64,000 nucleotides of DNA from Candidatus Asbonarchaeum danakilense (GCA_034190465.1 JAXINV010000004.1:6802-70801), one strand, 5' to 3'. Counted from the stretch's first letter, positions 11,039 through 27,570 are shown. The notes: generated by a model not told the origin, from the sequence alone. Made by a program: numbers and translations.

Positions 11039-11233
11039 TCACCCTCCGGTCGCGCCCCGGATGGCGCCCGTCGCATTCTGTCCCGAGGCGTTCATGATAT
11101 CCTTGATAATACTACCCGCCCGTTCTGGAATATCTGTCCCGATACTGATGACGATGAGCGCGATGATGCCAAGTAAAAGGATAAAGACGATCAACTTCGG
11201 TCCCAGCGTGAACTGTCCACGTCGATCCGTCAT
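11039..11233 (-). CDS. Ultra-short prepilin-like protein (64 aa)
   Basis: N-terminus MTDRRG|QFTLGPKLIVFILLLGIIALIVISIG, with Gln at the putative +1 position as in EppA-type substrates. The C-terminus is Gly-rich. The start overlaps the upstream stop (ATGA). Confidence 0.6.
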   Translation of the reverse strand: MTDRRGQFTLGPKLIVFILLLGIIALIVISIGTDIPERAGSIIKDIMNASGQNATGAIRGATGG

Positions 11234-11397
11234 CCGAGCTCACCTATCGCTTTATCGACCAGTGTATTGAGGGGGTCAGCCGTCCCAAAAATCATCTCTT
11301 TGAGTACCGTCGTTGAGGCAAGGACAACAATCAATACCGCCAGTATCACAACAACGATCTTCACCGTTGAACTGAACCCTTTCCGGCGGCGGGACAT
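11230..11397 (-). CDS. Ultra-short prepilin-like protein (55 aa), not in the supplied ORF track
   Basis: Manual translation gives MSRRRKG|FSSTVKIVVVILAVLIVVLASTTVLKEMIFGTADPLNTLVDKAIGELG. The TGA stop overlaps the ATG of the next gene. A TATA-like GGTATTATACC lies about 30 nt upstream. Confidence 0.55.
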   Translation of the reverse strand: MSRRRKGFSSTVKIVVVILAVLIVVLASTTVLKEMIFGTADPLNTLVDKAIGELG

Positions 11398-11440
11398 CTT
11401 CAGAACAAGCTTTACCCGTGACGGTATAATACCTTTTTGG

Positions 11441-12127: not shown

Positions 12128-12143
12128 GGTTGGTCATCTCCAA

Positions 12144-15100
12144 TCAGTGGTTCGGCCAGGAACTCTGATGGCCGTACCACTGGATGGCCGCTTCGCCGAG
12201 CGCACCCGAGGCACCACCGGCAGCAGCCACGACCGTGACAGCAAGATACGTTCCTCCGGTCAGGACTGACGCGATGACCTCGGCAGCGATGCCGCCGAGC
12301 ATCAACCCTGCCGTGATGAACTCGTTCCGCTGGAGGTCCGCGTTCCAGCCGTAGACCGCCATACCATTCTTGGTCTGCCAGTCGTTATTGTTACCTACGC
12401 CGTCCACACCCACGACAAGGGAGCTGTAACTGATCCTCTTCCGCGTGTTGCCGAAGTCGTAGGCGTCCACAATACTGTCCCAAAGGCCTGCAAGGAGGGT
12501 ATGCTGCTCGAAGTACGTCGTTCCCGTCGCACCCGCCGTCACACGCGGACGGGAGATAGTAGTATCCCACTTCAGCCCTTTCCACGTCTCTGTCGCACAT
12601 GACCACGCTGCGTATGAGACATCGATATCGATGTTGAAGTCACCTCCCGTACCGATCGTAAAGTCCGTATGCGGTATTGTGAACTGGAACGGCGTGATAT
12701 CCCCACCTGCGTGCGCTTCCAAGTCCTTCGTTTTACACTTCCCGTTCCAGAACCAGATCTGATTGTACCACCCGTTGGGCGGTGTGACCCACTCCCAGTC
12801 CTCATCAGGGTCTTTCTGGATGGCGACCTCCCTGTTCGGCGCCGCCTGCGGACCCACCATGTACTGGACGTTGTTGAAACCTGGACCTCTACCTGCCGGC
12901 CATCCGGCATTGACCTGATACTCGCCGTGATCCACACCGTGCTGGCTGGGCACCGAACGCACGAACGGATACTGTGTGTAGTACAGTTCGCCGTCACACA
13001 TATTGGACTTGTAAAACGTCCCCGACCAGTTCTTCGGCACGCTCGGCTCGTTCGAGCCGGAATCACGGTCCAGTTTCACGTTCTGGATGGCATCGGTAGG
13101 AAGTACAGCACTAGTGATACCTGAAAGGATATCCGCTCCAACATCGTCCCCCGTCGGATCCAGCCAGTTGAAAACCCCGCGAAGCCCTTCTTTGATGGCG
13201 CCGATCGCATCACCAAATCCTTCTGGAAGGAAATCGCACGTACTCGGTGTGAGAAGATATGGCCCCCTGTATCTTTCCTGATCCTCGGCATTCGCCAGTT
13301 CGCCCGAATTGATTTTTCCACCGTCCGCCGCCATCACCGCGCTCGATACATAGGTCGTCATCTGCTTCATCCGCACCGTCAGGTGCGGTGTCCCGGATGC
13401 ACCGGCTATCCTGTCCGTGTACATTGGCGAGGCCATGTAGAACCTGCCGTCAGGATTGCTACCGCCACGATCCAGCCCAATGAAGAAGAAATTGGCAAGC
13501 GGGTGGAGCCGGAACTGGAGCGGCGGCATGAACGACCGGGCAAGATACAGCGAGTTGACATTACCTGGTTTGCTCATATACCCTGTCGACGTGATGAAGT
13601 CTGCCGCGTGACCGACAAGCGTCATAGCAGCACATGCAGCTGTCCCGCCGGAACTCGCGTACGATCCAGCCGTCCTGACGTGACTGACGCCCGCGGCGCT
13701 ACACAGGCTTTTGATAGCTCCATCGACAGCTCCGCTGTATGCTGCGCATCGGCCGAGACTTTCCCACAGATCGCTCTGCGCGGAATCCATGTTATTCATG
13801 ATCGCCTGAATCGCCTGCGAACGTACCATCTTGCTGTTGCAGGCAGCCGCGATAGCCCCCTTCTTCATGAAGTTCGCCGCGTTGTCAACCATGCCGCCAC
13901 CCCTCGATGCCAGGCCACGGATTGATTTCGTGGCCTTTTGAATTATCTTCTGAGCGGCCTCCCGCCGCGGAGCCCCTGAGAGCTCCATGAGCGTGCTGGC
14001 ATAGTCCGAAGCCCGGAACGACATCCGCAGCGAGTGCCGCAACGAGTTCGCTGGGTCCATAGCGCTTGCATAGCTGCTGGACTTCGGCAACCGCTCCATC
14101 AAGTCATCAACCGTCCTGGCGCCGTTCATCAGGCGGTTGGCCGTAATCGTCGACATGTCCTCGATCATCTGCTGGGCGGCCGCCTCGTCACCGCCGTGGG
14201 CCGCAACAATATTGGCGTAGACGCTGTCACCGGCATCATCCGTACTCTGCAATGCCTCTTCCCAGTTCTCCGCGACCATCGTCCGCATCTGCGTGTAATC
14301 GAGCGTCCGCACCGTTCCATCCGGCCGGACGATCCGGTAAGTGTATTCCCCACTCTCATCCAGCTGGTGCAGGGTTACATGCGCCAGATCTTCATCCATC
14401 TGCCTGAAGAAGTCATCAAGGACGTTCTGGGCTGCATCATCCGAAATCGAGTCAATACCGACATAGACAGAAAGCTTCGAAACGGCCTCACGCATGAAGG
14501 CCTCACCCATCGCCTTGGCGGACGCTGCGACCCCGTAGGCCGCCCGTCCCGGATACGTCGCTCCACGTGCGAACAGACGAGCCCACCGGGCAGGTCTCGA
14601 CGAACCAACGTAATCGATCATTGCACGGGCCGCCCATTCGGCCGCCTCCTTCGCCGCCGTAGCGCGACTGGTCGCACCAAGAAGCTCATCGACCGAACCC
14701 GCTCCATATCTTGCCACCCGGCCTATCATAGAGCCCGTCTTGAACATGTACTTGCTCACCCCACTGGCAAGCCGCGAACCGATTTTGCCAGCAGGAGCGG
14801 GGATGGCACCCATGACACCTGCAAACGCGATTGCCATCATGTTCCAGCCCGACGTCCGCGTCAGCCAGTTGCCCTCGACCGAGGGTTTCAGCTTCTGGTA
14901 GTACAGGACATATTTCGGCATACCGTGCCCCTTCAAGAAGTTGATGATCGTCTGCGGCACCGAGCCCCCGTCAAGTTCCCAGGGCCCCGTGAATGGCACC
15001 TGCTGTGGGAGCGCGAACCCGTAGACACGGCAGCTGCCGCCGCCGGGGTTGTTCTTCATCGCGTCGCACTTGACCTTGACGCCCTTCCCGAACTTGACAA

Positions 15101-15494
15101 CGCCTTTACCTCCCGGGGCCGCCTCCTTGCAGGAGTGATCGATGCGCGAACCGAACCCCTGCTCAGAGAACGGCGTGTTCCACTGTTCAAGATAGGCGCT
15201 CTGATCAACACTGTCCGCCGGCGCATTGATCATAGCAGAACAGGAGATAGCGAACGTCAGTGCCTTCGTCGACTCGACAGCGACCTGCTGGTACGTTGCT
15301 CCGAACTGGAACAGTTGGGCCAGCGTCCTGATGGTCGGTGTCAGGTTGCCGCCGGCCAGCGTGAAGATGAACCCGCCGACGATCAGCACACCGAGAAGAC
15401 GGACGGTCGTCTCTGTCACGACCGTGAACCCCTTCCGCGGGGCCTGTTGTGCCTCGTGAACGAAACGTGCTACCTTCCGTCTGAGGTCGACCAT
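12144..15494 (-). CDS. Giant prepilin-like / membrane-associated protein (about 1116 aa)
   Basis: The ATG at 15494 is preceded by AAGGTAGGAG; the track start at 15512 is GTG. The N-terminus is MVDLRRKVARFVHEAQQAPRKG|FTVVTETTVRLLGVLIVGGFIFTLAGG. There are extra hydrophobic segments (WNMMAIAFAGVMGAIPAPAG) and a C-terminal one (ITAGLMLGGIAAEVIASVLTGGTYLAVTVVAAAGG). 12 Cys by manual count. Confidence 0.7.
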   Translation of the reverse strand: MVDLRRKVARFVHEAQQAPRKGFTVVTETTVRLLGVLIVGGFIFTLAGGNLTPTIRTLAQLFQFGATYQQVAVESTKALTFAISCSAMINAPADSVDQSAYLEQWNTPFSEQGFGSRIDHSCKEAAPGGKGVVKFGKGVKVKCDAMKNNPGGGSCRVYGFALPQQVPFTGPWELDGGSVPQTIINFLKGHGMPKYVLYYQKLKPSVEGNWLTRTSGWNMMAIAFAGVMGAIPAPAGKIGSRLASGVSKYMFKTGSMIGRVARYGAGSVDELLGATSRATAAKEAAEWAARAMIDYVGSSRPARWARLFARGATYPGRAAYGVAASAKAMGEAFMREAVSKLSVYVGIDSISDDAAQNVLDDFFRQMDEDLAHVTLHQLDESGEYTYRIVRPDGTVRTLDYTQMRTMVAENWEEALQSTDDAGDSVYANIVAAHGGDEAAAQQMIEDMSTITANRLMNGARTVDDLMERLPKSSSYASAMDPANSLRHSLRMSFRASDYASTLMELSGAPRREAAQKIIQKATKSIRGLASRGGGMVDNAANFMKKGAIAAACNSKMVRSQAIQAIMNNMDSAQSDLWESLGRCAAYSGAVDGAIKSLCSAAGVSHVRTAGSYASSGGTAACAAMTLVGHAADFITSTGYMSKPGNVNSLYLARSFMPPLQFRLHPLANFFFIGLDRGGSNPDGRFYMASPMYTDRIAGASGTPHLTVRMKQMTTYVSSAVMAADGGKINSGELANAEDQERYRGPYLLTPSTCDFLPEGFGDAIGAIKEGLRGVFNWLDPTGDDVGADILSGITSAVLPTDAIQNVKLDRDSGSNEPSVPKNWSGTFYKSNMCDGELYYTQYPFVRSVPSQHGVDHGEYQVNAGWPAGRGPGFNNVQYMVGPQAAPNREVAIQKDPDEDWEWVTPPNGWYNQIWFWNGKCKTKDLEAHAGGDITPFQFTIPHTDFTIGTGGDFNIDIDVSYAAWSCATETWKGLKWDTTISRPRVTAGATGTTYFEQHTLLAGLWDSIVDAYDFGNTRKRISYSSLVVGVDGVGNNNDWQTKNGMAVYGWNADLQRNEFITAGLMLGGIAAEVIASVLTGGTYLAVTVVAAAGGASGALGEAAIQWYGHQSSWPNH

Positions 15495-15535
15495 TACTCC
15501 TACCTTTTCCACGATGGCTTAAAAATACTGGGGGG

Positions 15536-15724
15536 TCAGCCGAACGGACACCTGATCGTGTGGCCCATCCCGGACAGGATGCCGCGGATAGGGCCAAGGA
15601 CGCTCATGAACAGGTCACACGCCTCGGCGCTGTCGGCCGCGTTGAAGAACGCGACACCAATTATCGTACCGAATATAAGTGCTGCAGCAACCATAAGAAT
15701 CATCATGAACGTCCGTGAATTCAT
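15536..15724 (-). CDS. Ultra-short hydrophobic N-terminus protein (62 aa), possible prepilin-like
   Basis: N-terminus MNSRT|FMMILMVAAALIFGTIIGVAFF. 2 Cys. The start overlaps the upstream stop (ATGA). Confidence 0.5.
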   Translation of the reverse strand: MNSRTFMMILMVAAALIFGTIIGVAFFNAADSAEACDLFMSVLGPIRGILSGMGHTIRCPFG

Positions 15725-15864
15725 CCCTCAGTCATGACCTCCAGTATAACCTGGACCGCTTGATCCGTCCAGCCCAGTATGAGCGCAGCCATGAGGATGA
15801 AGAAGACGACAGCAAGGACGGCGATGACCACCCGGAGCCAGTGATGCTGTCCCTTCCTCCCCAT
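15721..15864 (-). CDS. Ultra-short prepilin-like protein (47 aa), not in the supplied ORF track
   Basis: Manual translation gives MGRKG|QHHWLRVVIAVLAVVFFILMAALILGWTDQAVQVILEVMTEG. The TGA stop overlaps the ATG of the next gene. A TTTAATATT box (15903-15911) lies upstream. Confidence 0.5.
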   Translation of the reverse strand: MGRKGQHHWLRVVIAVLAVVFFILMAALILGWTDQAVQVILEVMTEG

Positions 15865-15918: not shown

Positions 15919-18057
15919 CTACGACACACCGATGCCGGAGATAATCCCGCCGAAGATCGCCGTGATGATGAACACAGTCACCGTGTACACGATCGTCATC
16001 ACCAGCAGCATCTGCCCGATCGCGATGTTCCGCCGTGCCGGGTTGTTGCCGACCTCAAGCCGGACATACAGCGTGCCGATCAGCAGCGCCAGCTCGATGA
16101 GGTAGATGCCGACGATCGCCTGCAGGACGCCCGGCGGGATCGACGATTTGATGTTGAACAGCGTCAGGACGCCCGATGCACCGCCTGTCAGGCCACCCCC
16201 TACGCCACCGGCGGCTCCACCGCCTCCACCTGCACCGGCTGTCGCGTTCCCGATCGACTGGTTCTTGACGGTCTGCCCGATCGCGTAGAACGCCTGGGAG
16301 ATGACAGACCCCATGCCGACCGCGATGCCGGAGATGACCGGGGCAACGATGTAGCCGAGGAACTTGATGGACGAGACCGTCTCATCCAGCACCTCCTCCA
16401 GCTTCTCCTGCGTGTCACGGATGTTCTTCAGGTAGTTGGAGATGCTGAGGATCGACCGCGACGTGACCTCAGGGCCCTTCTTGATCGACTCAGAGATGAT
16501 CTCCATGATCGTGCTGATCAGCTGCGACGGGTACGTCTGGATCGCGCCCGACCGCTGATCGAACACCGCCTGCTTGAAGTCCATGCCCTGCTCCTTGATA
16601 TTGCGGGATATAAGACGGAACAAGTCAGCGATGTTCAGCGACTGCCGCTTCTGCGCCGCCGTGTCGATCGCACGCTCGATCGGCATGCCCTTGTCAAGCT
16701 GGTTTCCAAGCTCGAACAGGATCTCCGGGAACTCCTCCTCCATCTCCCGGATCGTGTTCTGTCGGGAGACTGTGCTCTTATAGCCGAGATACAGGTGCAA
16801 CCCCGCTGGCACGGAGATCCCGAGCACCAACATCATCTCACGGAGCAGCGTCACATTGCTCACCGATATCGGGATCGTGCCCCCACCGAAGAACGCGTGG
16901 AAATAGTGAGGCACCGGCCACGACATCATCAGGAGGAACAGGGGAACCGTGAACACATACAGCGGGACATAATAGGTCGTGCCGAACACACCGACCGGGA
17001 ACTTCCCGCCATGCCCGAAGTCGGCCTGGCCCGCTGCAGATGAGAACGACACCGGGCGGCCGACAAGCAGGTTGCGCATGATCGCGAACACGACCAGCGG
17101 GATGATGATGTCATACAGGAAGAACAGGTAGAACCCCATCCCTGAGCCGCCCATGAACGACGCAATCATCGGGAACAGGATGATGCCCAGCACAGGGAGC
17201 AGGATACCGACACCGTGCAGCACCATCACCGGCAGCCGCATCTGGCGGGCAAACTCGTTCATCTGGCTCTTCGTGTAGTCGAGCAGGTTGTTGACGGATT
17301 CGTTCAGGATCTCAAGGCGCTTATCGTTGCTTGGAGCCGTCTTCGCCGATTCCAGCAGGCTGAGCGCCTCGATGAATCCGCGGTTGTACGGTTTCCACCG
17401 GTCCATGTAGTCCCGCAGCCCCTCGTCGATCGTGTTGTACACACGCATATCCAGTTTCCACAAGATCTCGTTGAAGTCGCGGGACACCGGGCCCTGCAGT
17501 CGCTGCGCCGAAAAGGCAACAGCTCCTTCCAGGTTCGGTGTGGAGCGCATGTACACGACCATGTAGAGTATCGACAGAATCAGATCCTCCGATGACTTGA
17601 CCACCTTCTGCTGCGCCCGCAGGTTCGGATACTTCAGGATGTAGTAGAACCCGGCGAACGGGATGATAACGAAGAACAACTTCAACAGCATCGGGAACGA
17701 CGTCAGCATCATCACAAAGCTGACCGGGAACAGCATCAGCATCAGCATCGTCGCCGACGGCGCGACATCCTCCGCCTCGATGTCCCAGTCCAGCAGGCGG
17801 ATCGCCTGCCGGTGGTCCTCCTCCATGTCCTCAAACGTGTACGAAAAGAACGACGTCCTATTCACGAACCGTTCATACCATGACTTCTCTCCCGCTCTTA
17901 CCTCCTCAGACTTGTACTGTTGGTATTCGCGGGACTCAACGTTGAAATCCTCATCCTGCTGCCCTCCATCCATGTACCGCTCGATGTCGCCCTCTGATGG
18001 ACCACGTTCCAGCTCACTGATCCACTCCTTCAGGTTCTCGTCATCATCTCCTGGCAT
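15919..18057 (-). CDS. Type IV pilus / archaellum-type platform membrane protein (PilC/FlaJ/TadC-like, two T2SSF-type helical domains)
   Basis: 712 aa and polytopic. Two cytoplasmic helical domains (…SSEDLILSILYMVVYMRSTPNLEGAVAFSAQRL… and …FPEILFELGNQLDKGMPIERAIDTAA…) are each followed by TM clusters. It lies immediately downstream of the secretion ATPase. Confidence 0.8.
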   Translation of the reverse strand: MPGDDDENLKEWISELERGPSEGDIERYMDGGQQDEDFNVESREYQQYKSEEVRAGEKSWYERFVNRTSFFSYTFEDMEEDHRQAIRLLDWDIEAEDVAPSATMLMLMLFPVSFVMMLTSFPMLLKLFFVIIPFAGFYYILKYPNLRAQQKVVKSSEDLILSILYMVVYMRSTPNLEGAVAFSAQRLQGPVSRDFNEILWKLDMRVYNTIDEGLRDYMDRWKPYNRGFIEALSLLESAKTAPSNDKRLEILNESVNNLLDYTKSQMNEFARQMRLPVMVLHGVGILLPVLGIILFPMIASFMGGSGMGFYLFFLYDIIIPLVVFAIMRNLLVGRPVSFSSAAGQADFGHGGKFPVGVFGTTYYVPLYVFTVPLFLLMMSWPVPHYFHAFFGGGTIPISVSNVTLLREMMLVLGISVPAGLHLYLGYKSTVSRQNTIREMEEEFPEILFELGNQLDKGMPIERAIDTAAQKRQSLNIADLFRLISRNIKEQGMDFKQAVFDQRSGAIQTYPSQLISTIMEIISESIKKGPEVTSRSILSISNYLKNIRDTQEKLEEVLDETVSSIKFLGYIVAPVISGIAVGMGSVISQAFYAIGQTVKNQSIGNATAGAGGGGGAAGGVGGGLTGGASGVLTLFNIKSSIPPGVLQAIVGIYLIELALLIGTLYVRLEVGNNPARRNIAIGQMLLVMTIVYTVTVFIITAIFGGIISGIGVS

Positions 18058-18066: not shown

Positions 18067-20355
18067 CTACAGCTGGTTCCTCACCCAGTCATCCCACCGC
18101 TCGAAGACCTCATCCGTGTCGATCGTCCCGAACTCTTCAGACACGTTCTCCGACACCGTGTGGAACTTCTCGTTCGCCCGGGCGACAAAGTCCGCCTCCA
18201 TCAGCTCCTCCTTGCCCGACTCCTTCGCATACTCCACCAGCTTCTGCTTGTACTTGGCGCGGAGCTGGATGTTGTCCCAGACCGCCTCCCAGTCATTCTT
18301 CCAGTCCGCAACGTTTGACGCGATCGAGTTCAGAATCACCGACTCGCCGTTCCGCAGCGTGTCCGTCGGCTTCAGCTTGTCCTCCTTCGCATCGTACCGC
18401 ATCAACGGGACGAACGCGTCCTCCTTCAGCGGGTCCTCCGACCACTCCTTCCGTACCTCAGCGATCTGCGTCACGCGGCGGTACTTGTGCAGGCCATCCG
18501 GCGACGTCAGCCGGTTGCAGGTCACGATAATGTCCGTCGCCTTGAAGCTCGTCGGCGGCACGTTCAGGTCGTTCACCACGCGGTCGAACACAGAATACGG
18601 GTCCTCACCGTGGATCGTGCCCGCGACGTAGTTAGCAAGCGCACCGACACGCATCGCCTCGTACAGCGCCTGAGCCTCCTCCGAACGAACCTCACCGACG
18701 ATCAGCGACGAGTCTCCCAGCCGCAGCGACGTCCTGATAGCCTCGGCTGCGGAGATCTCGCTCTCCGTCGACGTGATGACCGACGCCGACTTCAGCCGCT
18801 CGATATTGTAGCCCAGCTCCCGCAGGTACGGCAGCGGCAGCTCCAGCGTGTCCTCCACGGAGACGATACGGTTCTTCTTCATCATCTCCACCAGCGAGGC
18901 TCCCAGCAGCGACGACTTGCCGGCGGAACGTGTCCCCGAGTACAGCACAGACCGGGCACCGTCGATCACGAAATGGAGCAGGCCCGCCGCAAGCGGTGTG
19001 AAGTAGTCCACGTCCAGGAACAGCGGGAACGTCCACGGCTCGTCCCTGTGGCGGCGGAACGCGTACGCCAGGCCGTCCGGCGACAGGTTCTTCGTCACGA
19101 CCGCGACCCGTGCACGGCCGCCCGGGACCTCGACCGAGGTGTCCAGCACCGGGTTGGCCTCGTCCAGCGGTCGACCGGACTTCAGCCGGAACCTGGTGGC
19201 CCAGGACTCCGCGTCGTCCATCGTCGGGATCAGGTTGGTCGCGCACTCGCCGTGGTTTGCGTGGATCACGTAGATCGGCGAGGTGCCGACAGGTGCGTTG
19301 ACGTAGATGTCCTGCAGCTGCTGATCCGCCAGCAGCACCTCCAGCACGCCCAGGCCCGCCGTGTACCGCACCAGGATCGAGGTCAGCTGCTCCACCTTGT
19401 CCGGCGACAGGCTCACGTTCCGCTGCTGGGCGATGTTGATGATCATGTCCCGGCCGACGTTGGAGAAGATCTCCCGTGTCCGGCCCGGCTCAGCGAACTC
19501 GGACTCCTCCGGCTGGTGCTCGGACATGTACCGCCGCGCGATGTCCAGTATCTCGTACTCCTCGTCGTTCAGGTCGAACTCCGGCGGCGTGATGTGGTAT
19601 TTCGGCCGTGCGTCGTCCTCGACCTTCAGCACCTGGACCTCCGCATCGGCTTCATCCAGCGAGTACCGGTCGATCTCCCGTGACTTGTCCGGAACGTTCT
19701 TCATGAACCGTGTGAGCATGAAGTTCGGCCGGATCGTCGGGTGGAAGATCTGTCGGTAGATGTCCCTGTTGCCGAGGTGGTAGCCGGCGAGCTCACCCTG
19801 CACCTGCTGGATCAGGTCCAGGTCCTCCAGCCGTTCTTTCAGCGGCTTCAGCTTCCGCTCCAGCCAGTGCCGGTAACAATCAGCGACACGGGGAGGGGAG
19901 CGCTGTGCCTTGACCTTGACCTCCTCGATCTTCCGCTTGACCTTGACGTAGGCACCAATCGGGTCCTGCCGCAGGTCCTGCGCCAACAGGTCCTGGATGA
20001 AGCTCTGCACCGTCGGGATCATCCGTTCGCAGTTGTCCCGCATGTAGTCGTCCGGCTGCGTGAACTGGGGGTCCCGTTTCAGCCGCACGATCAGCGAGGC
20101 GACCTCGTTGAGTAGCTTGACCTGGTCGTAGCCGTACTCGTAGTCACGCTCCTGCGCCAGCACCACGTCGCGGACATCATCCAGCTCGGACAAGATATCG
20201 ATGACACGGGCCATCACGACCTCGAAGTCGGCGATGGACGCTCCGTAGTTCGAGCCGCGGAGGTTGATGCGTACACGTCCTTCTTCCCGGTCGAACTGAT
20301 AGCTCCCTACTCCTCCCTGCTGGAACGGGTTGTCAGCTTGGTTTCCGTTGGCCAT
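18067..20355 (-). CDS. Type II/IV secretion-family ATPase (PilB/FlaI/VirB11 superfamily) with a long N-terminal extension
   Basis: 762 aa. Carries a Walker A motif (SGTRSAGKSSLLG), a Walker B/Asp-box region (LRLGDSSLIVGEVRSEEAQALYEAMRVG) and a His-box-like VAGTIHGED. Confidence 0.85.
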   Translation of the reverse strand: MANGNQADNPFQQGGVGSYQFDREEGRVRINLRGSNYGASIADFEVVMARVIDILSELDDVRDVVLAQERDYEYGYDQVKLLNEVASLIVRLKRDPQFTQPDDYMRDNCERMIPTVQSFIQDLLAQDLRQDPIGAYVKVKRKIEEVKVKAQRSPPRVADCYRHWLERKLKPLKERLEDLDLIQQVQGELAGYHLGNRDIYRQIFHPTIRPNFMLTRFMKNVPDKSREIDRYSLDEADAEVQVLKVEDDARPKYHITPPEFDLNDEEYEILDIARRYMSEHQPEESEFAEPGRTREIFSNVGRDMIINIAQQRNVSLSPDKVEQLTSILVRYTAGLGVLEVLLADQQLQDIYVNAPVGTSPIYVIHANHGECATNLIPTMDDAESWATRFRLKSGRPLDEANPVLDTSVEVPGGRARVAVVTKNLSPDGLAYAFRRHRDEPWTFPLFLDVDYFTPLAAGLLHFVIDGARSVLYSGTRSAGKSSLLGASLVEMMKKNRIVSVEDTLELPLPYLRELGYNIERLKSASVITSTESEISAAEAIRTSLRLGDSSLIVGEVRSEEAQALYEAMRVGALANYVAGTIHGEDPYSVFDRVVNDLNVPPTSFKATDIIVTCNRLTSPDGLHKYRRVTQIAEVRKEWSEDPLKEDAFVPLMRYDAKEDKLKPTDTLRNGESVILNSIASNVADWKNDWEAVWDNIQLRAKYKQKLVEYAKESGKEELMEADFVARANEKFHTVSENVSEEFGTIDTDEVFERWDDWVRNQL

Positions 20356-20500
20356 GGTTGCTCCCAGAATGTCGCCCTGTCCCTATGCTGTGCGGGCAGT
20401 ATGGTACAAATTCTGTGCTTGCTCTATATAATACTTGGCCGGGACAGGCGCTCGCAGCGGTTCCTGAACGAAAACGCCCGCAGCGGCGCTGCAAGCAGAC

Positions 20501-20512
20501 CAAGTTATATAA
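20501..20512 (+). promoter_or_regulatory. Putative TATA promoter (CAAGTTATATAA) for 20537 (+)
   Basis: Centre lies about 29 nt upstream of the ATG at 20537, consistent with a leaderless or short-leader archaeal transcript. Confidence 0.5.
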
Positions 20513-20536
20513 TGGGGAATAGCAAAATGGTAAGGT

Positions 20537-20920
20537 ATGGCTGCTCAGGGTGGACAGGACGATGTCATCAGCCGACTGAACAACAACGCCCGTCGGATAC
20601 GGCAGCTGGAAGAAACCACGCGGAATCTCCAGGAACAGGTCAAGAACATCGAAGACCGGCTGAACAACCAGAAGAAGCGCGTCAGCCAGAACAAGACCGA
20701 TATCAAGGAGAAGACCGAAGAACTCAACGAAAAGGTCGAGAACCTGAACGCAGAGATCAAAAAACTGCAGCGCAAAACCCGGAAGCTCGTCACGCGTCGC
20801 GAGTTCAGCGAGGTCGAGGAATACATCGACCTCATGAACCCTGTCGAGAGTGATTTCGTCACAGAGAGCGATGTCGAAGAGATGATCGAGCAGAAACTCC
20901 AGGAACGGAACACGACGTGA
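20537..20920 (+). CDS. Coiled-coil protein (127 aa), function unknown
   Basis: Heptad-rich sequence (RRIRQLEETTRNLQEQVKNIEDRLNNQKKRV...). It is divergent from the pilus ATPase gene. Confidence 0.65.
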   Translation: MAAQGGQDDVISRLNNNARRIRQLEETTRNLQEQVKNIEDRLNNQKKRVSQNKTDIKEKTEELNEKVENLNAEIKKLQRKTRKLVTRREFSEVEEYIDLMNPVESDFVTESDVEEMIEQKLQERNTT

Positions 20921-20926
20921 TACCTG

Positions 20927-21769
20927 ATGAAATTCGAATTCCTCGGCAAACTACGCGGTAACGACGACGAAGACGATTCTTCCGAGGAGCAACAAGAAGC
21001 GCCTGTCAACGAGGTCCAGAACCTCTCCAACCAGGGTTATTCTCAGCACGAGATCACGGAAGAGCTCCGGGACCGCGGCTACACATACTCCGCCATCAAC
21101 AAGGCGATGAACCGGGCTGTCCGTGAATCAACGACCAGTGGCTCTCCCGCAGGACGTTCCGAATCACAGGGACAGAGCGGAAGCGATTTCAGCCAGCCGG
21201 GACAACAACCGCAGTCTGGCGGTCAGCAGCAGAGACAGTCCCGGAGCAGTCAACAGGGACAAAGCGGCTTCCAGCAACAGCGACAATCACAGCAGCCGCA
21301 GCCAACGCCGCAGCAACAGCAAGGACAGGGCGGCTACGGCCAGGGTCAGCAGGGCGGACAACAGCGATCACAGCAGCCTTCATACGAGAGCTACGACGAA
21401 AGCAGCTACAGCGACGAAGACTGGGCGCCGGACGTCGGGATCAGCCAGGAAGAGGAGGAGCTGATTGAGACGATCATCGAGGAGAAGATAATCGATATCG
21501 AGGACGAGTTCGAGACCATCTACGGCCGTATCGAGTCCCTTGAAGATACGGTGGACCAGCTCCAGGAGGACGTCCATGACCTCAAAATACGCAAAGAAGA
21601 GGACGAACAAGAGTTCCTGCAGAAGATGGAGGAGATGGAAGACTACCTGGAGAACTCACAGTCACGGATCGGCGGACTGGAGAAAGCATTCCAGCAGACA
21701 CTCCCCTCACTCGTTGAGAACGTCCGCGATCTGACAGAACTGGTCGAGGACATGCGGGAAGAACAGTAA
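20927..21769 (+). CDS. Protein with an N-terminal helical domain, a Q/G/S-rich low-complexity core and a C-terminal acidic coiled coil (280 aa)
   Basis: The start lies 6 nt after the upstream stop. The central region is QGQSGSDFSQPGQQPQSGGQQQRQSRSSQQGQSGFQQQRQSQQPQPTPQQQQGQGGYGQGQQGGQQRSQQ. The C-terminus is a coiled coil. Confidence 0.65.
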   Translation: MKFEFLGKLRGNDDEDDSSEEQQEAPVNEVQNLSNQGYSQHEITEELRDRGYTYSAINKAMNRAVRESTTSGSPAGRSESQGQSGSDFSQPGQQPQSGGQQQRQSRSSQQGQSGFQQQRQSQQPQPTPQQQQGQGGYGQGQQGGQQRSQQPSYESYDESSYSDEDWAPDVGISQEEEELIETIIEEKIIDIEDEFETIYGRIESLEDTVDQLQEDVHDLKIRKEEDEQEFLQKMEEMEDYLENSQSRIGGLEKAFQQTLPSLVENVRDLTELVEDMREEQ

Positions 21770-21819
21770 GCCCTGTCAGAAGTTCTTTCCAGCGCGCTGG
21801 CCGCTGACATGCACCGTTC

Positions 21820-22314
21820 TCAGTCGCCGCTCGTCATGTACTTCATGATGTACACGATGCCTACTACCATGACGACTGTCATGGCAGCTTCCCCGGTCAA
21901 CCACTTGGCGACCTCGACACCGGTGTAGGAGAGCATGTAGATGATGATCAGTGCCAGGATACCAGCAGCGACAAGCGCCATATTGCGCTGCCGGTTCTCA
22001 CCGCCCTCCAGCATCTCCGTGATATCTACACCGAGGATACCGAGGATGAGGACGTAGCCCAGCAGCACGAACAGCCCCAACGTCACGAGGCTGAAGAACC
22101 AGCTGAACACTGCTGTACCGCCGAAGACCTGGATGATCCCGGCAACAGACATGAACGCTGTGACAAGTGCGATCGCAGCGTCAACGGTTTCATCGTCGAA
22201 CAGTTCAATCTTCTGCAGCAGACCGTAGACGATCGCCATGATGAAGACGAACATCAGGAACGAAGGAAACCCCACGCTCCAGAGGTTACTGATCAGTTGC
22301 TCAAATATTGCCAT
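21820..22314 (-). CDS. Small polytopic membrane protein, paralog 1 of 3 (164 aa)
   Basis: Has 4-5 hydrophobic helices. FPSFLMFVFIMAIVYGLLQKIELF aligns with the equivalent segments of its two neighbours. Confidence 0.65.
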   Translation of the reverse strand: MAIFEQLISNLWSVGFPSFLMFVFIMAIVYGLLQKIELFDDETVDAAIALVTAFMSVAGIIQVFGGTAVFSWFFSLVTLGLFVLLGYVLILGILGVDITEMLEGGENRQRNMALVAAGILALIIIYMLSYTGVEVAKWLTGEAAMTVVMVVGIVYIMKYMTSGD

Positions 22315-22325
22315 TCTTAATCACC

Positions 22326-22817
22326 TCAGCTCATGGCGGAGAACATCAGATAGATGATACCGCCGATGACTGCGATTGAAATCAGGTTATTGATGTTGGT
22401 CAGCCAGGTCGGATCACCAGGCAGGTTTGCGAAGACCTGACTCCCTTGCAGAAGACTGAGTCCAACCAGTGCGGCGGCAATACCGAAGATCCACTTCACC
22501 TTGCCGCTCTCCATTTCAAGGCCGGGAACCATGCCAAGGACCAGCATGAATCCCAGGAAACCGACAAGCACCATGGCAAGACTGGGAAGGAAGCTGCCCT
22601 CAAGCAGCAGCGACTGGATCTGGCCACCGCCAGCGAACGTGACGAACGCAGCAAGAACAGCTGATATTACCTTGTCAGCATCACCGCTGAAGATATCCAG
22701 TTCATCAAGCAGACCATAGATTATCGCGAAAACGAGTGCAAAGGGAAGAAGGTACTGGAAAACACCATTCTCTTTGAGGAGACCTACCACTTTGTCCATA
22801 CTCACGCCGCTTGCCAT
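22326..22817 (-). CDS. Small polytopic membrane protein, paralog 2 of 3 (163 aa)
   Basis: FQYLLPFALVFAIIYGLLDELDIF is similar to paralog 1. Length and topology are the same. Confidence 0.65.
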   Translation of the reverse strand: MASGVSMDKVVGLLKENGVFQYLLPFALVFAIIYGLLDELDIFSGDADKVISAVLAAFVTFAGGGQIQSLLLEGSFLPSLAMVLVGFLGFMLVLGMVPGLEMESGKVKWIFGIAAALVGLSLLQGSQVFANLPGDPTWLTNINNLISIAVIGGIIYLMFSAMS

Positions 22818-22854
22818 GATGTATTACCCCTGTGTACCCACAATTCGTCGGCCA

Positions 22855-22868
22855 ATTTATATAACTTG
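22855..22868 (-). promoter_or_regulatory. Putative promoter (CAAGTTATATAAAT on the gene strand)
   Basis: AT-rich box in the 22818-22888 intergenic region, upstream of the ATG at 22817. Confidence 0.45.
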
Positions 22869-22888
22869 TCCACCGCCCGTCAAGACAC

Positions 22889-23641
22889 TCAGATATGATG
22901 ACCGCGGTGCCTCCCGTGTGTCAGCATCCGGAAGAACAGATAGCCCAGTACCGAGATGATGACAATCATGAAGACGCTGCCGCCGGCAACACCGCGGGCC
23001 AGGTCCCGGGTCTGCTCACCGAGGAATCCGAGACCGCTGAGAGAGCTGAACAGGATGAACAGGCCGACGAACGCGATCATCAGGCCGCCGAACGATCCTG
23101 CAGTCAGCCCGATCTCGAAGATCGCAAACCCGATGGCCATGAGGAGGAGACTGCTACCCATGTTCCCGATAATCGTCAGCAGGTTCAGCGATATCTCCCC
23201 GTTTTCCAGGGTGGCGGCAGCGATGATCTTCCCGCCGATCGTCTGGTAGACGCCGCTGGGGATGAGGATAAGGCCGAGGATCAGGGCGATGACTGCTGCC
23301 GTGTTCCCGCTGGCAACATCGGCCCCCTCCACACCCAAGAAGATCATGATCGTCACAAGCGCAAACGGCAGGAGAACGAAGTAGAGGAAACGCGGGAAGG
23401 AATCCACCGAAAGCTCATCCTGCTTGTTCTCCGGGACGAAAAGCCGGTTGAACGTGTCCGTGATAGCCTCACTGCCGAACAGGGCTCCCCCATTGTTCGA
23501 ACCGGAGTCAGAACCACTGTCAGACCCCTCTGCTGCCGCAACTGTTCCTGCACTCATCGTCAGTAACAGGAGTACCAGGACAAGCGAGCCGAGCTTGGAA
23601 GGGTCGAACGATGACAGTGTCATACAACCACCTATGTCCAT
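22889..23641 (-). CDS. Membrane protein, paralog 3 of 3, with an N-terminal signal/extracellular Ser/Gly-rich extension (250 aa)
   Basis: A signal-like LGSLVLVLLLLTMSAGTVAAAEG is followed by FPRFLYFVLLPFALVTIMIFLG, which is related to the two downstream paralogs. Confidence 0.6.
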   Translation of the reverse strand: MDIGGCMTLSSFDPSKLGSLVLVLLLLTMSAGTVAAAEGSDSGSDSGSNNGGALFGSEAITDTFNRLFVPENKQDELSVDSFPRFLYFVLLPFALVTIMIFLGVEGADVASGNTAAVIALILGLILIPSGVYQTIGGKIIAAATLENGEISLNLLTIIGNMGSSLLLMAIGFAIFEIGLTAGSFGGLMIAFVGLFILFSSLSGLGFLGEQTRDLARGVAGGSVFMIVIISVLGYLFFRMLTHGRHRGHHI

Positions 23642-23669: not shown

Positions 23670-24827
23670 TCAGGACTCATCTCCGTCGCGCCAGAGCCGG
23701 TCCGCGGTCCAGTTGTAGAGACGTGATGCCCTATTCCTGTACCGCCCCATGACCTCCCGGGTCGCATCACGGACACCAGTGCTCTCACCGGGGAGGAACG
23801 CGTTCATCTCCTCGTACGTCTCCTCGATCGCTTCAAGTGCGTCAGCATCGTCGTAGGCCTCGACATCGTCGAATTCCTCGTACCATCCGCTCTCAGCAGC
23901 GACGTCGCCGTCCTCATCGACGAGCTGGACGTTGTACGCGAAATCATCTTGGCTGTTGTATTCAAGCGTCCCAAGCCCTTGGCCGCTGTACACGACCTCA
24001 TCGTCCGTCGCCTCCGCCTGGAGGAAGCTGAGGCCGTCCTCATCGTCGATCCCGAAGTAGGCGTCATCCCCGCCAACGTAGCTCGAGGCCGCGTCGAAGT
24101 CGAAGCTGGCGACCTCCATATTCTCCAGCGGCGTCAGGAAGCCGGTATCGAAGTTGTAATACCTTTCACCCTCGTCGGTCTCCGCCTTCTTGTCGTACCG
24201 TCCGCCCACGACACGGATCTCGGCGATATCATCAACGAGCTCCTCGAGATCGGCACCGGCGATGGAAACTCCGTAATCCAGTTCTGCAGTATCGTTGGCC
24301 GGCAGGCCTGCCAGGCGCCCGAGGAAGCTGAAATCTCCCTCGTAGACGCCGTCCCCCATGATCCGGAGATCAACATCGTAGTCGGACGAGGGCGCGGCAT
24401 CCCCCGGCTCATCGACCGCCCTGTCCGATGTATCCGTCGCTCCATCCTGTCCGATATCGTCGTCGACAGGTTCAGGGCCGTACGGTTCGTCGGTCCCCCC
24501 ATCATCGTATCCCTCCCTGCCGTCCTGGCCCGAAGAAGGCCCCAGGTCAGGGTGGGCTGGGCCGGTCTCATCGTACACCGGGTCCATGATGAGCGGGCCG
24601 ACGTACTGTTCCTGTACACGGTCCCAGAACCGTTCGAGAGAGTCCAGAGAATCGCTTGCATCAAGCATATCATCGTAGAGGTCGACAGCATCCTCTGAAT
24701 CCATGTAATCACGCCTGGCCGAGTTCTTCAGGATGGAGGATCCCATCCGCAGCGCCTGGTCTATCCGCCCTCGTTCCAGTACGTCATCAATCGCTGCCAT
24801 GGGATCGACGCGGAGGTTGTCAGCCAT
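23670..24827 (-). CDS. Highly acidic hypothetical protein (385 aa)
   Basis: Long ORF with halophile-type D/E-rich composition. No motif recognised. Confidence 0.6.
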   Translation of the reverse strand: MADNLRVDPMAAIDDVLERGRIDQALRMGSSILKNSARRDYMDSEDAVDLYDDMLDASDSLDSLERFWDRVQEQYVGPLIMDPVYDETGPAHPDLGPSSGQDGREGYDDGGTDEPYGPEPVDDDIGQDGATDTSDRAVDEPGDAAPSSDYDVDLRIMGDGVYEGDFSFLGRLAGLPANDTAELDYGVSIAGADLEELVDDIAEIRVVGGRYDKKAETDEGERYYNFDTGFLTPLENMEVASFDFDAASSYVGGDDAYFGIDDEDGLSFLQAEATDDEVVYSGQGLGTLEYNSQDDFAYNVQLVDEDGDVAAESGWYEEFDDVEAYDDADALEAIEETYEEMNAFLPGESTGVRDATREVMGRYRNRASRLYNWTADRLWRDGDES

Positions 24828-24928: not shown

Positions 24929-25663
24929 ATGTCAGACGGAGCAGATGAGGAGCCGGCAGAGGTTTCGATCGACACAGAGCAAAACGCGGTAGAAGACAGC
25001 GGCGACAGCAACCCTCTCAGCGGAGCAGCCGACCGACACCAGCAGGACGTGGAACAGCTCCGCGACATGCTCGACCACGACGGCTCCGACACGCAACTGG
25101 CCGAGAAGATATACGACAGAGAGAGCGAAAAACAGGAACGGCTCTACGACGGCATGAAGGGCGTCCTGCTCAAGGAGAACATCGACGCGTTCACGACCGA
25201 CGTACTCGACGACGTCGATATCTCCGACCCCGACGAGGTCCGGCGGGCGATGGCGCTGATCGAACAGTACAGGCGGAACGTCGAATCCACCTTCGACGAG
25301 GACGTCGGCAGTCTGTTCGACGACGCGGACATCGACGACGTTGACCGGTTCCTCGGCGACGACGCAGACGGCGACTACGACACACTCGTCGCAGCGGTCG
25401 AACACCAGTACGGCGATGACGTGGCCGATGTCGTCGACCAGTACGTCGAAAAGACGTTAGCAGCAAATCAGAAAGCCGGTAGGTCATACCTAGAGTCCGA
25501 GATGGAGCTTGCCGTCGCCGAAGGAGATCAGGACTACCTTGGGCGGCTTGAGAACGCTATCACAGAAGCCCGGCAGTACTTCAACGCAGGACAGACAGAA
25601 CCTGCACGTCTGAGCGAGGGACTCCGTCAGGTCAGCGCGTCCTACGACCTGGGAACGGAATGA
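24929..25663 (+). CDS. Highly acidic hypothetical protein (244 aa)
   Basis: Long D/E-rich ORF, divergent from 23670..24827. No motif recognised. Confidence 0.6.
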   Translation: MSDGADEEPAEVSIDTEQNAVEDSGDSNPLSGAADRHQQDVEQLRDMLDHDGSDTQLAEKIYDRESEKQERLYDGMKGVLLKENIDAFTTDVLDDVDISDPDEVRRAMALIEQYRRNVESTFDEDVGSLFDDADIDDVDRFLGDDADGDYDTLVAAVEHQYGDDVADVVDQYVEKTLAANQKAGRSYLESEMELAVAEGDQDYLGRLENAITEARQYFNAGQTEPARLSEGLRQVSASYDLGTE

Positions 25664-25817: not shown

Positions 25818-26702
25818 TCACTGGCCCTTGACCGTGACAGTCACAGAGTTGTCCTGGGCGTAGGTGTAGTTTGCCTCGGCGATGAACGTGTACGTCTTCA
25901 GCGGAGCGCTGCCCAGACCGACCTCGTCGCTTGCCAGTGTGCAGCGGACACGGTTGCCTGAGGACAGATCGACGAGACCGCTGCAGTCCTCCAGCTTCGG
26001 GCCGTTCTCCACACGGACGTTCAGCGTCACTTCAGAGCTGTTGATACTGCCCTGTCCGACGTTCTCGATCTTCACCGGGATGATGATCTCCGATCCGCCG
26101 TTGTACGGGTAGGGCGTCTCCCCGAGGAACGTGATGTGCACCGGGGCGCCGTACTGCGTGTTGGACATCTGGCTGCGCGTCCGGCCCTCCTCCTCAAACG
26201 TCTGCTGGTCCATCACAGTGAACTTCGCACGGGTGGTGGCGTTGTACTCGTAGAACGTCTGGAGACCGATAGTGTAGGTGTCCTGCTGGCCTGCACCGAG
26301 CGCCGTATCGACCGTCCGGCTGAACGTGACGCTCTGCTTGCCCTGGATGAAGTTGTTACTCTTATCGAACGCGGCAAGACTGTCAACGTGCTTCCAGTCG
26401 CCACCGGCCGCCCAGCTTGCACCGTAGAGACGGAGCTGGATGTTCTCTGCCTCGAACTGGCCGGTGTTCTTCAGGTTGGCGACGAACGTCGCCGTCTCAC
26501 CGTTAAAGTATGTATCGACGCCGGCGGAGAAATCGATCGTCAGCCCGCCCTGCGGCGTGAACTTGGTCGCTGTGTCCCCCCCATTGTCTCCCTGATCGCC
26601 CGTTGTCGGGCCGTTAAATATAGGGGATCCTTGAGGTTGCGTGCATCCAGCAAGAGCGACTGCCAGGACCAGAACAGCAGGCAAGACAAGCTTGTTGTTC
26701 AT
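25818..26702 (-). CDS. Secreted lipoprotein, beta-rich (about 294 aa)
   Basis: The ATG at 26702 gives MNNKLVLPAVLVLAVALAGC, a lipobox-type signal (LAGC). The track start at 26714 is GTG. Confidence 0.65.
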   Translation of the reverse strand: MNNKLVLPAVLVLAVALAGCTQPQGSPIFNGPTTGDQGDNGGDTATKFTPQGGLTIDFSAGVDTYFNGETATFVANLKNTGQFEAENIQLRLYGASWAAGGDWKHVDSLAAFDKSNNFIQGKQSVTFSRTVDTALGAGQQDTYTIGLQTFYEYNATTRAKFTVMDQQTFEEEGRTRSQMSNTQYGAPVHITFLGETPYPYNGGSEIIIPVKIENVGQGSINSSEVTLNVRVENGPKLEDCSGLVDLSSGNRVRCTLASDEVGLGSAPLKTYTFIAEANYTYAQDNSVTVTVKGQ

Positions 26703-26740
26703 TTTTGATAGCACCTACCTGTACCAAGCTGATCGAAAGG

Positions 26741-26769: not shown

Positions 26770-27570
26770 TCAACCGAACAGCAGGTCCTTGAGCCGGGTA
26801 ACCATCGTTGCCGGGGCCTCCTCCTGTGGTTCCTGCGGCTGTTCCTCTTCCTGTTCCGGGTAATCAAGGGAGTCGATCTGCTCGATCAGTTCATCCTCAG
26901 CACCTTCAAGACGATACCAGCGCTGTCTGTAAGCCTCATCCCCGATTTCTCCACGTTCATACTGGCCTTCAAGACGCTTCTTCCGTAGCTCGACCTGCCC
27001 GAGCTGCGCCTCCAGCTCGTGCCTGCTCTCCTCAACAGAGGACTGATCCGGCTCCTGCGACTCTGGCTCCCCTGTCCTGGAAGAAGTGGGGCCATGCGCA
27101 TCGAGCCGCTGGCCGATCTCACGTTTCAGCTTGGCGGGTTGCCCCACGCCATGGAGCGTCAGCTCGGTCGAATCAGTTCCCGCAGTCTCAACATGGATGT
27201 CGCCTATACCGAACATCCGCTGATCTGCATCCTGCTCGATCGCGACCTCGATGATGTGCGTGTACATGACCGAATAGATATCCTTATTCAGCACGCCGCG
27301 CTCCTCGATGATCTTCCTCGTGGTGAAATGGTACATCGTGAAGCGGCGGCGCAGTTCAAACCAGATCAGAAGGAATCCACCAACTCCTCCTGCACCAACC
27401 GTCACCCAGTTCATCACGAACCGTGTGGTCCACGCCGCACCGACGGCGACGATCGACAGGAGAAGGGCAACCCCGTACCCGGTGATATAGTGTCTGTCGA
27501 GGCGGGACGGGTTGAGCGTCTTCTCAAGCTCCTCCCCTTCCTCAAGCAGGCGCTGGACGCTGGAAAACAT
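26770..27570 (-). CDS. Membrane protein with a bacterial PH (YdbS/YdbT-like) domain and a C-terminal SHOCT-like segment
   Basis: Two TM helices are followed by YHFTTRKIIEERGVLNKDIYSV...IGDIHVETAG, a bPH_2-like pattern. The C-terminal LEGQYERGEIGDEAYRQRWYRLEG resembles a SHOCT motif. Confidence 0.6.
   Translation of the reverse strand: MFSSVQRLLEEGEELEKTLNPSRLDRHYITGYGVALLLSIVAVGAAWTTRFVMNWVTVGAGGVGGFLLIWFELRRRFTMYHFTTRKIIEERGVLNKDIYSVMYTHIIEVAIEQDADQRMFGIGDIHVETAGTDSTELTLHGVGQPAKLKREIGQRLDAHGPTSSRTGEPESQEPDQSSVEESRHELEAQLGQVELRKKRLEGQYERGEIGDEAYRQRWYRLEGAEDELIEQIDSLDYPEQEEEQPQEPQEEAPATMVTRLKDLLFG

Follow-up and report, generated by a model that had tools for sequence, protein, structure and literature searches.

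The present study concerns a group of five genes next to a pilus-like operon in a 64,000-nucleotide stretch of Candidatus Asbonarchaeum danakilense (GCA_034190465.1 JAXINV010000004.1:6802-70801; hereafter the window). The window belongs to a Candidatus Nanohaloarchaea metagenome-assembled genome (MAG), in which its proteins were deposited as hypothetical proteins; its GC content is approximately 56–64% and the encoded proteins are acidic. Two of the five genes lie on the plus strand and encode soluble proteins: a 127-aa coiled-coil protein (cc127, 20537-20920) and a 280-aa protein with three regions (cc280, 20927-21769). The other three, on the minus strand, converge on this pair. They are mp164 (21820-22314), which adjoins cc280, mp163 (22326-22817), and mp250 (22889-23641), encoding membrane proteins of 164, 163, and 250 aa, respectively; the first two are predicted to have five helices, and all three are polytopic by hydropathy. 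A sequence-only reading had described these five open reading frames (ORFs) and regarded their products as candidate accessory or anchoring components of the pilus-like system. Our ORF check found all five as described there. Approximately 80 other genomes have homologs of cc127, cc280, mp163, and mp164 that are arranged in the same way; therefore, these genes are not chance ORFs.

A divergent intergenic region (20356-20536) with TATA-like boxes at 20425-20431 and 20502-20512 separates cc127 from the pilus ATPase gene (18067-20355, minus strand). This shared promoter region had been put at 180 nt and measures 181 nt. The ATPase is a 762-aa protein of the type II/IV secretion family (T2SSE, FlaI/CpaF-like) with an N-terminal extension of approximately 300 aa. 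It matched PF00437 (T2SSE) with an E of 7e-12 and 45.1 bits against a cut-off of 24.9, and the PF00437 annotation was precomputed on all of its close homologs. The nearest NCBIfam model was archaellum FlaI/ArlI (NF058587), at 124.8 bits against a cut-off of 550. Since this score is far under the cut-off, the protein is a relative of the archaellum motor ATPase, not an archaellum ATPase. It is 55–89% identical across Nanohaloarchaeota and 43–45% identical to the ATPases of low-GC DPANN loci. The adjacent gene (15919-18057, minus strand) encodes a 712-aa polytopic TadC/PilC/ArlJ-like platform protein. Its matches to PF00482 (T2SSF; E 0.019, 15.4 bits against a cut-off of 25.2) and to ArlJ in NCBIfam (E 0.019) are weak, and the T2SSF matches precomputed on its homologs are faint; its size, polytopic character, and place after the ATPase all suit a TadC/PilC/ArlJ platform, and its homologs come after the ATPase in nearly all of the loci described below. 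A run of pilin-like genes follows downstream (2492-15864, minus strand), with at least eight genes whose products start with [KR]-G and a hydrophobic helix, similar to class III signal peptides. The T2SSE ATPase, the TadC-like protein, and at least eight pilin-like genes indicate that this is a real type-IV-filament locus.

Several further features of these pilus genes were observed. One downstream gene (7875-9182, minus strand) encodes a 435-aa protein with a pilin-like N-terminus (MTEGKG and a hydrophobic helix) and a Laminin_G_3/concanavalin-A-like lectin domain (E 8e-22). As a possible sugar-binding tip subunit or adhesin of the filament, this protein would be relevant to host recognition. 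The gene directly downstream of TadC (12144-15512, minus strand) encodes a 1122-aa protein with a class-III-like N-terminus (PRKG/FTVVTE and a hydrophobic helix) and no Pfam match; related loci carry counterparts of 537–1229 aa. Moreover, the ATPase homologs P0013, P0064, P0069, P0089, P0115, and P0118 are approximately 1250 aa long and contain intein and homing-endonuclease domains (PF14528, PF14890), and the ATPase ORFs in L019, L021, L030, L040, L041, L052, and L057 encode 1075–1494 aa versus the usual 760 aa or so. Judging from ORF length in the latter loci, intein insertion into the pilus ATPase may be recurrent across DPANN.

Gene neighborhoods were compared in mp-anchored loci of GTDB species representatives. 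These loci were gathered with one back-translated pattern, PFLL[IV]FA[IL][VI][YF], taken from a 16-sequence subset because the 97-sequence alignment of the mp family had no stretch conserved enough for a pattern. It gave 324 confirmed matches, and 80 loci were kept. Hidden Markov models (HMMs) of the five families were scanned over the ORFs of 90 loci, and presence was counted in the 84 loci retrieved via the mp family alone, with the loci that had enough flanking DNA as the denominator. The labels on mp-anchored loci were Woese-, Pace-, Nano-, Aenigmat-, and Parvarchaeota and Haiyanarchaeum. The mp and cc homologs were not scattered, but were linked to the ATPase: mp-anchored loci contained a cc280 homolog in 62/64, a cc127 homolog in 59/63, and a pilus-type (T2SSE) ATPase in 49/54 cases. 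Order and orientation were fixed, with mp1, mp2, and mp3 in tandem converging on cc280 and cc127, which in turn diverge from the ATPase, TadC, and pilin genes. The median distance from the last mp gene was 10 bp to cc280 (stop to stop) and 1264 bp to the ATPase. No unrelated function was assignable to the module proteins by Pfam, NCBIfam, PHROGs, PADLOC, or PDB fold comparisons. The block and the pilus genes are genetically associated, as strongly as gene neighborhood allows.

Loci retrieved individually showed the same layout. Four Nanohaloarchaeota loci fetched via the ATPase (L003-L006), two of them from cultured organisms with complete genomes (Nanohalobium constans and Nanohalovita haloferacivicina), have neighbors homologous to the window proteins: two mp genes (approximately 185 and 166 aa) converge on a cc280-like and a cc127-like gene, across from which lie the ATPase and TadC genes. 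Four further loci were fetched via mp homologs. Three are low-GC DPANN contigs with the same block beside a 762-aa ATPase, and in the fourth, from Parvarchaeota (L007), three tandem mp genes converge on a cc280 homolog with no ATPase within 10 kb. Since L007 retains the three mp genes and cc280, the pairing of mp with cc280 is the tightest. By homology and arrangement, cc127, cc280, mp163, and mp164 appear to be the nanohaloarchaeal version of a DPANN-wide gene block, to which mp250 possibly also belongs.

Alternatively, the mp and cc genes may constitute an envelope or membrane module of their own that is merely co-located, and perhaps co-regulated, with the pilus operon; membrane remodelling, a cytoplasmic bridge to the host, or division might be its role. 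The three mp genes and cc280 can occur without an ATPase nearby (L007/L011, in few loci only), mp and cc280 are paired more tightly with each other than with the ATPase, and the block is transcribed separately from the ATPase operon, all of which would suit such a module. However, the ATPase lies at a median of approximately 1.3 kb in those 49/54 loci, across phylum-level divergence, and cc127 shares a divergent promoter region with it. Furthermore, housekeeping neighbors vary between lineages, whereas the block remains intact. Even L042 and L051, two exceptions examined closely that have no cc or ATPase genes nearby, carry pilin-like genes adjoining their mp genes. We consider an independent module to be unlikely.

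Some mp genes lie on contigs deposited as Thermoproteota, ‘uncultured Methanosarcinales’, Patescibacteria, or Paceibacterota (L015/L016, L022, L027, L036, L054, L064, L065, L070, L071, L074, and L080). Most of these contigs carry the rest of the block, and the short contigs L015/L016 and L036 hold mp genes only. These non-DPANN labels likely reflect mis-binning or mislabelling.

The mp genes generally occur in threes. Among 65 loci complete on both sides, three tandem mp genes were present in 54, two in 8, and four in 3. In the 59 clean three-gene loci, the best match of each protein in another genome (under 90% identity) was the product of the gene at the equivalent position, without exception (59/59 at all three positions). 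This indicates three ancient, non-interchangeable orthogroups, as expected for distinct subunits of one complex, and points to an ancient triplication retained as three non-redundant subunits. In the window, mp163 is closest to the mp2 orthogroup (67 bits with the mp2 HMM versus 48 with mp1 and 22 with mp3). The position of mp164 by cc280 is the mp3 slot of other loci, and its helix-1 pattern is mp3-like. mp163 and mp164 are 28% identical end to end (BLASTP E 2e-6) and, on this similarity, are true paralogs. The mp-family HMM recognized mp164 with an E of 3e-42, and the E values of its homologs in L003-L006 ranged from 7e-9 to 1e-39.

A word-indexed protein search with mp163 returned mp163 alone, and an exhaustive HMM search with a two-paralog profile returned 249 cluster representatives at E ≤ 1e-3. 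Among the best 150 of these 249 matches, most had 150–215 residues and many aligned over most of their length. In sources that name the relatives, they are entered as ‘hypothetical protein’ of Parvarchaeota, Aenigmarchaeota, Nanohaloarchaea, Micrarchaeota, or ‘archaeon’ MAGs. mp163, mp164, and mp250 had no match in NCBIfam, PHROGs, or PADLOC and only sub-threshold matches in Pfam-A (E ≥ 0.19); a Pfam search with 92 mp family members gave scattered sub-threshold matches only. The view that the membrane proteins match no family that can be named was thus borne out in these four collections. The mp family appears to be unnamed and without known relatives, and all taxon labels found for it are DPANN or those of other groups that are probably mis-binned.

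Family members share an amphipathic N-terminal helix ending in a conserved Gly, a first transmembrane helix with the pattern L-P-F-L-L-x-F-A-I-x-[FY]-[AG]-x-L, a basic loop after it (E-K-T-x-I-F-G), an Asn at the start of helix 2, and a Pro between helices 2 and 3. The signature in mp163 is G-x-F-xx-LPFxLVFAIIYGLL, followed by the conserved loop. The leader of 17–30 aa is amphipathic and acidic or neutral, and basic residues come after helix 1, not before it. An AlphaFold2 model of mp163 based on a 92-sequence alignment (mean predicted local distance difference test score [pLDDT] 77.8, predicted template-modeling score [pTM] 0.49) has an N-terminal helix and five long helices; an earlier model from a two-sequence alignment (pLDDT 51) was discarded. 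A Foldseek comparison of the mp163 model with the PDB gave nothing significant (best E 2.3, TM-score ≤ 0.35). Across the family, enrichment in K and R marks the C-terminus and the loop that follows helix 1, which suggests that both are cytoplasmic; we infer a five-helix, N-out/C-in topology. In related nanohaloarchaeal proteins, a signal peptide precedes the same helix, which would place the N-terminal end of the helix outside, in agreement with N-out. Type IV pilins have a short basic leader, a [KR]-[GA] cleavage motif, and a single N-terminal hydrophobic helix oriented N-in; in view of their helix number and predicted topology, the mp proteins were rejected as pilins.

An indirect role of the mp proteins in the pilus system, as enzymes or transporters, was also considered; the candidates were a divergent five-helix prepilin peptidase, a NuoJ-like ion-conducting subunit, a MotA/ExbB-type stator, and a lipid or glycan flippase. 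A five-transmembrane form exists among the PibD/FlaK prepilin peptidases, and a prepilin peptidase is reportedly missing from some nanoarchaea (PMC4858521). However, the A24 prepilin peptidases were rejected because no conserved Asp pair or GxGD was found in mp1, mp2, or mp3 and no Pfam match was obtained. More generally, none of the three orthogroups has a conserved acidic residue within its helices or any conserved catalytic or charged intramembrane residue. NuoJ/ND6 was suggested by weak profile matches in the PDB (E 6e-5 to 1e-3), but a Foldseek comparison with 8qby_J gave a TM-score of 0.20 and an E of 7, so that the NuoJ fold is unsupported. Among the scattered weak Pfam matches were the polytopic families DUF2070, T4SS_pilin, and TrbL; no significant Pfam, NCBIfam, PADLOC, or PHROG family match was found. 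Of the explanations considered here, an enzyme or transporter role appears to be the least probable. A phage or defense origin was also rejected: PHROGs and PADLOC gave coiled-coil noise for cc127 and nothing for mp, and no relative was found on IMG/VR viral contigs.

The third membrane protein, mp250, occupies the mp1 slot of other lineages. The sequence-only reading grouped it with mp163 and mp164 as three related polytopic proteins and assigned it a signal peptide and an extracellular extension rich in S and G. The polytopic character of all three and the kinship of mp163 and mp164 held up, as did the features of mp250 itself, which has a hydrophobic signal-like N-terminal segment followed by an S/G/D-rich stretch taken to be extracellular. 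However, its kinship to the other two did not: pairwise comparisons of mp250 with mp163 and mp164 gave E values of 0.006–0.09, an hhalign comparison of the small mp250 family with the mp family gave a probability of 16% (E 1.6e-3, 43 columns), and mp-family HMM scores for mp250 were ≤ 8 bits. The only supporting alignment was to one mp family member, with 42% identity over 53 residues of the first two transmembrane helices and the loop between them. Homologs of mp250 were found in close relatives only (L004, E 8e-20; L003, E 3e-6), and these showed no match to the mp family. mp250 as a bona fide paralog is statistically unsupported; its gene position makes a diverged mp relative in the mp1 slot possible, and we retain it as a positional candidate for mp1. 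A few genes upstream of their mp pair, Nanohalovita and Nanohalobium encode proteins (L005:4078-6318, L006:5562-7025, L005:3617-4033, and L006:5010-5525) in which an mp-like ‘P-F/L’ helix comes after a signal peptide; two of these proteins (487 and 746 aa) are fusions with long acidic coiled-coil regions. These proteins may be functional counterparts of mp250.

mp164 is the second gene of a two-gene operon with mp163, and a GGTGAT ribosome-binding motif precedes it; this motif is kept upstream of the mp164 homologs in L003 and L004. The promoter region of the operon (22818-22888, minus strand) contains the TATA-like 11-mer AAGTTATATAA at 22857-22867. The same 11-mer is found upstream of cc127 (20502-20512, plus strand), and these are its only two occurrences in the window, against a chance expectation of 0.03. 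In L003 and L004, related boxes precede the homologous genes, and the cc127-proximal box is conserved together with its flanks. mp250 has another kind of promoter box (TTTAAATA). The window contains further TATATAA boxes at 20425, 24855, and 27892. Since three other local promoters thus have boxes of this type and the extra identity amounts to four bases, the sharing of AAGTTATATAA is suggestive only.

Regarding the soluble proteins, cc127 has the family signature RxRxLEEK ... ARKE..LEKY...P..FVT, with homologs in the same position in L003-L006 (E 1e-25 to 1e-66), and gave generic coiled-coil matches only in Pfam and the PDB. As the sequence-only reading stated, cc280 consists of a helical N-terminus, a Q-rich core, and an acidic coiled coil, with 46 Q and 61 D+E per 280 residues. 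The N-terminal region is a small helix-loop-helix domain with x-G-x-S-xxx-I twice, the middle is a Q/P-rich low-complexity linker, and the C-terminal region is a conserved acidic helical or coiled-coil domain of approximately 110 aa that ends in AMEKVFxKIxPxLxxNVxEL. Both families are kept from Nanohaloarchaeota to Woesearchaeota. An hhalign comparison of the cc127 family with the C-terminal domain of cc280 gave a probability of 70% (E 4e-5, 99 columns), which suggests a paralogous pair able to heterodimerize, although coiled-coil composition inflates such scores. Matches of cc280 to FlaC_arch (PF05377; 21.8 bits, cut-off 27.8; 4/48 members at E<0.01) and DUF7310 (PF23991; 17.9 bits, cut-off 40; 7/48 members weak, best E 1.5e-4) are sub-threshold. 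In its N-terminal domain, 2/48 members weakly match UBA (PF00627, E 0.004), and the best natural PDB matches are CBL UBA (E 0.05) and RecX (E 0.055), far behind designed helical repeats.

Hamm et al. (2024, Nat Commun 15:6449, PMC11291902) described two conserved type IV pilus (T4P) loci in cluster 2 DPANN and Undinarchaeota that contain coiled-coil proteins (CCPs) said to resemble reovirus sigma-1 (6GAO). They reported the proteomic detection of these proteins in Ca. Nanohaloarchaeum antarcticus and read the CCPs as virus-like attachment proteins. Accordingly, the cc proteins may be extracellular sigma-1-like attachment fibres that are exported or displayed by the pilus machine, with the mp proteins as an anchor or conduit. 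DPANN need structures for host attachment, and the cc280 family profile matched the sigma-1 chains of 6GAJ/6GAO (E 2e-3 to 3e-3; 6GAO, E 2.8e-3), reproducing the published similarity. However, this match is no better than dozens of equally weak ones to unrelated coiled coils, including methyl-accepting chemotaxis proteins, keratin, designed proteins, and haemagglutinin. Furthermore, a signal peptide, class III signal, or transmembrane segment was found in none (0/98) of the cc127/cc280 family members, and no member of either family (0/48 and 0/50) has a TM-like segment (a 19-residue window above 1.6). The helix-loop-helix domain and disordered Q/P-rich linker of cc280 are typical of cytoplasmic adaptors. 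Since no hydrophobic segment was found in 98 members, the cc proteins are most simply cytoplasmic, and cc127 and cc280 are probably so. We regard extracellular fibres as very unlikely, and we question the published interpretation, in which the coiled-coil proteins are external, virus-like attachment fibres.

We conclude that cc127, cc280, and the mp proteins are probably dedicated accessory subunits of a DPANN-specific type-IV-filament (pilus-like) machine. The independent module, the extracellular fibres, and the enzyme or transporter role are all ranked below this interpretation. The linkage supports the earlier proposal of accessory or anchoring components, with membership of the machine deduced from gene neighborhood. 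As the most economical mechanism, we propose that the mp proteins form a hetero-oligomer of distinct five-helix, N-out/C-in paralogs in the cytoplasmic membrane. The short basic loop that follows helix 1 (L-E-K-T-x-I-F-G), which is the polar feature they conserve best, would face the cytoplasm. cc280 and cc127, with a common helical domain of approximately 100 aa, would form a cytoplasmic coiled-coil pair. The membrane complex would anchor these two proteins next to the TadC platform and the hexameric ATPase, and the anchored assembly may act as a scaffold, stator, or regulator of filament assembly. We infer the topology, the hetero-oligomer, the contacts among the cc proteins, mp proteins, and ATPase, and the scaffold role. 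This role may be comparable to that of ArlX or ArlC/D/E for the archaellum motor or of PilM/N/O for bacterial T4P. A bolder idea, which we hold to be improbable, is that the mp triad and the cc pair form an unrecognized DPANN-specific sub-complex that turns a Tad/archaellum-type ATPase-platform into a cell-cell contact organelle. If this is the case, the sub-complex may be the base of a filament or conduit for host attachment, a cytoplasmic bridge, or the uptake of material, and the mp triad would have no counterpart in any characterized type IV filament system.

Several points weigh against our conclusion. All of the functional evidence is gene neighborhood, and the sample of loci is not unbiased because it derives from a single pattern from one mp sub-group. 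In L007/L011, L042, L051, and L065, the mp genes have no cc127 or ATPase within 7–9 kb. We know of no T4P, type II secretion, or archaellum system with small five-helix membrane subunits like the mp proteins. The monomer model of mp163 is only moderate in global confidence (pTM 0.49). The kinship of cc127 and cc280 and the likenesses to FlaC_arch, UBA, and sigma-1 are at the level that coiled coils reach by composition, and cc127 and cc280 were not confirmed, sequence to sequence, to be the exact CCPs of Hamm et al.

The surroundings of the block differ among relatives. In N. constans (L006:1141-4515), several toxin-antitoxin pairs (VapB/PIN and MNT/HEPN) are inserted between Trm5 and the block and are absent there in the window. 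A divergent pair of extremely acidic proteins in the window (23670-24827, minus strand, D+E 102/385; 24929-25663, plus strand, D+E 66/244) has no family match and marginal similarity in one sister genome only; therefore, these genes are apparent lineage-specific insertions beside the module. The stretch from the module to Lrp/Trm5 includes genes for a CARDB-domain lipoprotein (25818-26714, minus strand) and for a membrane protein that combines a bPH_2 domain with a C-terminal coiled coil (26770-27570, minus strand). Each of the two has a homolog in the sister nanohaloarchaeal locus L004, and the lipoprotein has another in L003.

Direct host contact is a requirement for every DPANN archaeon in cultivation. 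The pilus-like locus, whose filament machine is thought to serve these tiny symbionts on their hosts, is one of few candidate contact systems conserved across DPANN lineages. The present study adds a fixed extra block to this locus, comprising two coiled-coil and two to four small, putative five-helix membrane proteins, which is about as conserved as the ATPase itself. The mp triad, with its three ancient non-interchangeable orthogroups, is apparently undescribed, appears to be DPANN-restricted, and is tightly coupled to the pilus machine. The mp family is definable for Pfam or arCOG annotation, and the block offers concrete targets for study in the existing co-cultures of Nanohalobium constans, Nanohalovita haloferacivicina, and Ca. 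Nha. antarcticus.

The loci of Hamm et al. resemble those described here in their lineages (Nanohaloarchaeota, Woese-, Pace-, Nano-, and Aenigmarchaeota) and in their core, in which coiled-coil proteins adjoin a CpaF-type ATPase and TadC. The cc proteins fit the description of the CCPs by position (beside CpaF/TadC), by lineage (cluster 2 DPANN), and by the sigma-1 (6GAO) match of the cc280 family; a correspondence of NAR1_03220/NAR1_01690 with cc127/cc280 could not be established. In contrast to their reading as virus-like attachment proteins, the sequence features obtained here point to cytoplasmic proteins. Small polytopic membrane proteins are not mentioned in the main text, the preprint, or the searchable part of the supplement of that study (PMC11291902), and the word ‘transmembrane’ is absent from its main text. 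The mp family is also unmentioned in Makarova et al. 2016 (PMC4858521), Makarova et al. 2019, and the other DPANN papers found, and the papers on the Nanobdellota YN1 attachment organelle and the Nanohalococcus consortium contain nothing on these genes. Therefore, the pilus loci and coiled-coil proteins are already published, whereas we found no published description of the mp family.

Makarova, Koonin & Albers (2016, PMC4858521) described a cytoplasmic coiled-coil protein, arCOG07564, in halobacterial clade 4F T4P loci, the ATPase clade of which is also present in ‘nanoarchaea’, and proposed a regulatory subunit by analogy with HP0958 of H. pylori. Similar to the cc proteins, it is an intracellular coiled coil tied to a T4P ATPase clade, and a few cc127 members weakly match CT398/HP0958-type hairpins. 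Compared by description, the cc proteins differ in having no Zn-ribbon, and no linked five-helix membrane proteins were described in PMC4858521. The likeness to bacterial PilM/PilN/PilO and Tad accessory proteins is a functional analogy only, namely, membrane-anchored coiled-coil partners that link the ATPase and platform to the machine; neither sequence nor fold similarity was seen, the bitopic PilN and PilO are not five-helix proteins, and this locus has no actin-like PilM. Similarly, ArlX of Crenarchaeota and ArlC/D/E of Euryarchaeota are coiled-coil proteins beside a FlaI-type ATPase and an ArlJ-type platform that form a scaffold around the motor, and the sub-threshold FlaC_arch match of cc280 is a further likeness to the archaellum; however, ArlH/KaiC-like, ArlF/G, and archaellin genes are absent from this locus. 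Since the accessory proteins passed no named-family test, the comparison with ArlX and PilMNO is an analogy, not a family assignment. ArlX has its own transmembrane anchor, whereas separate five-helix proteins would supply the membrane part in the DPANN machine.

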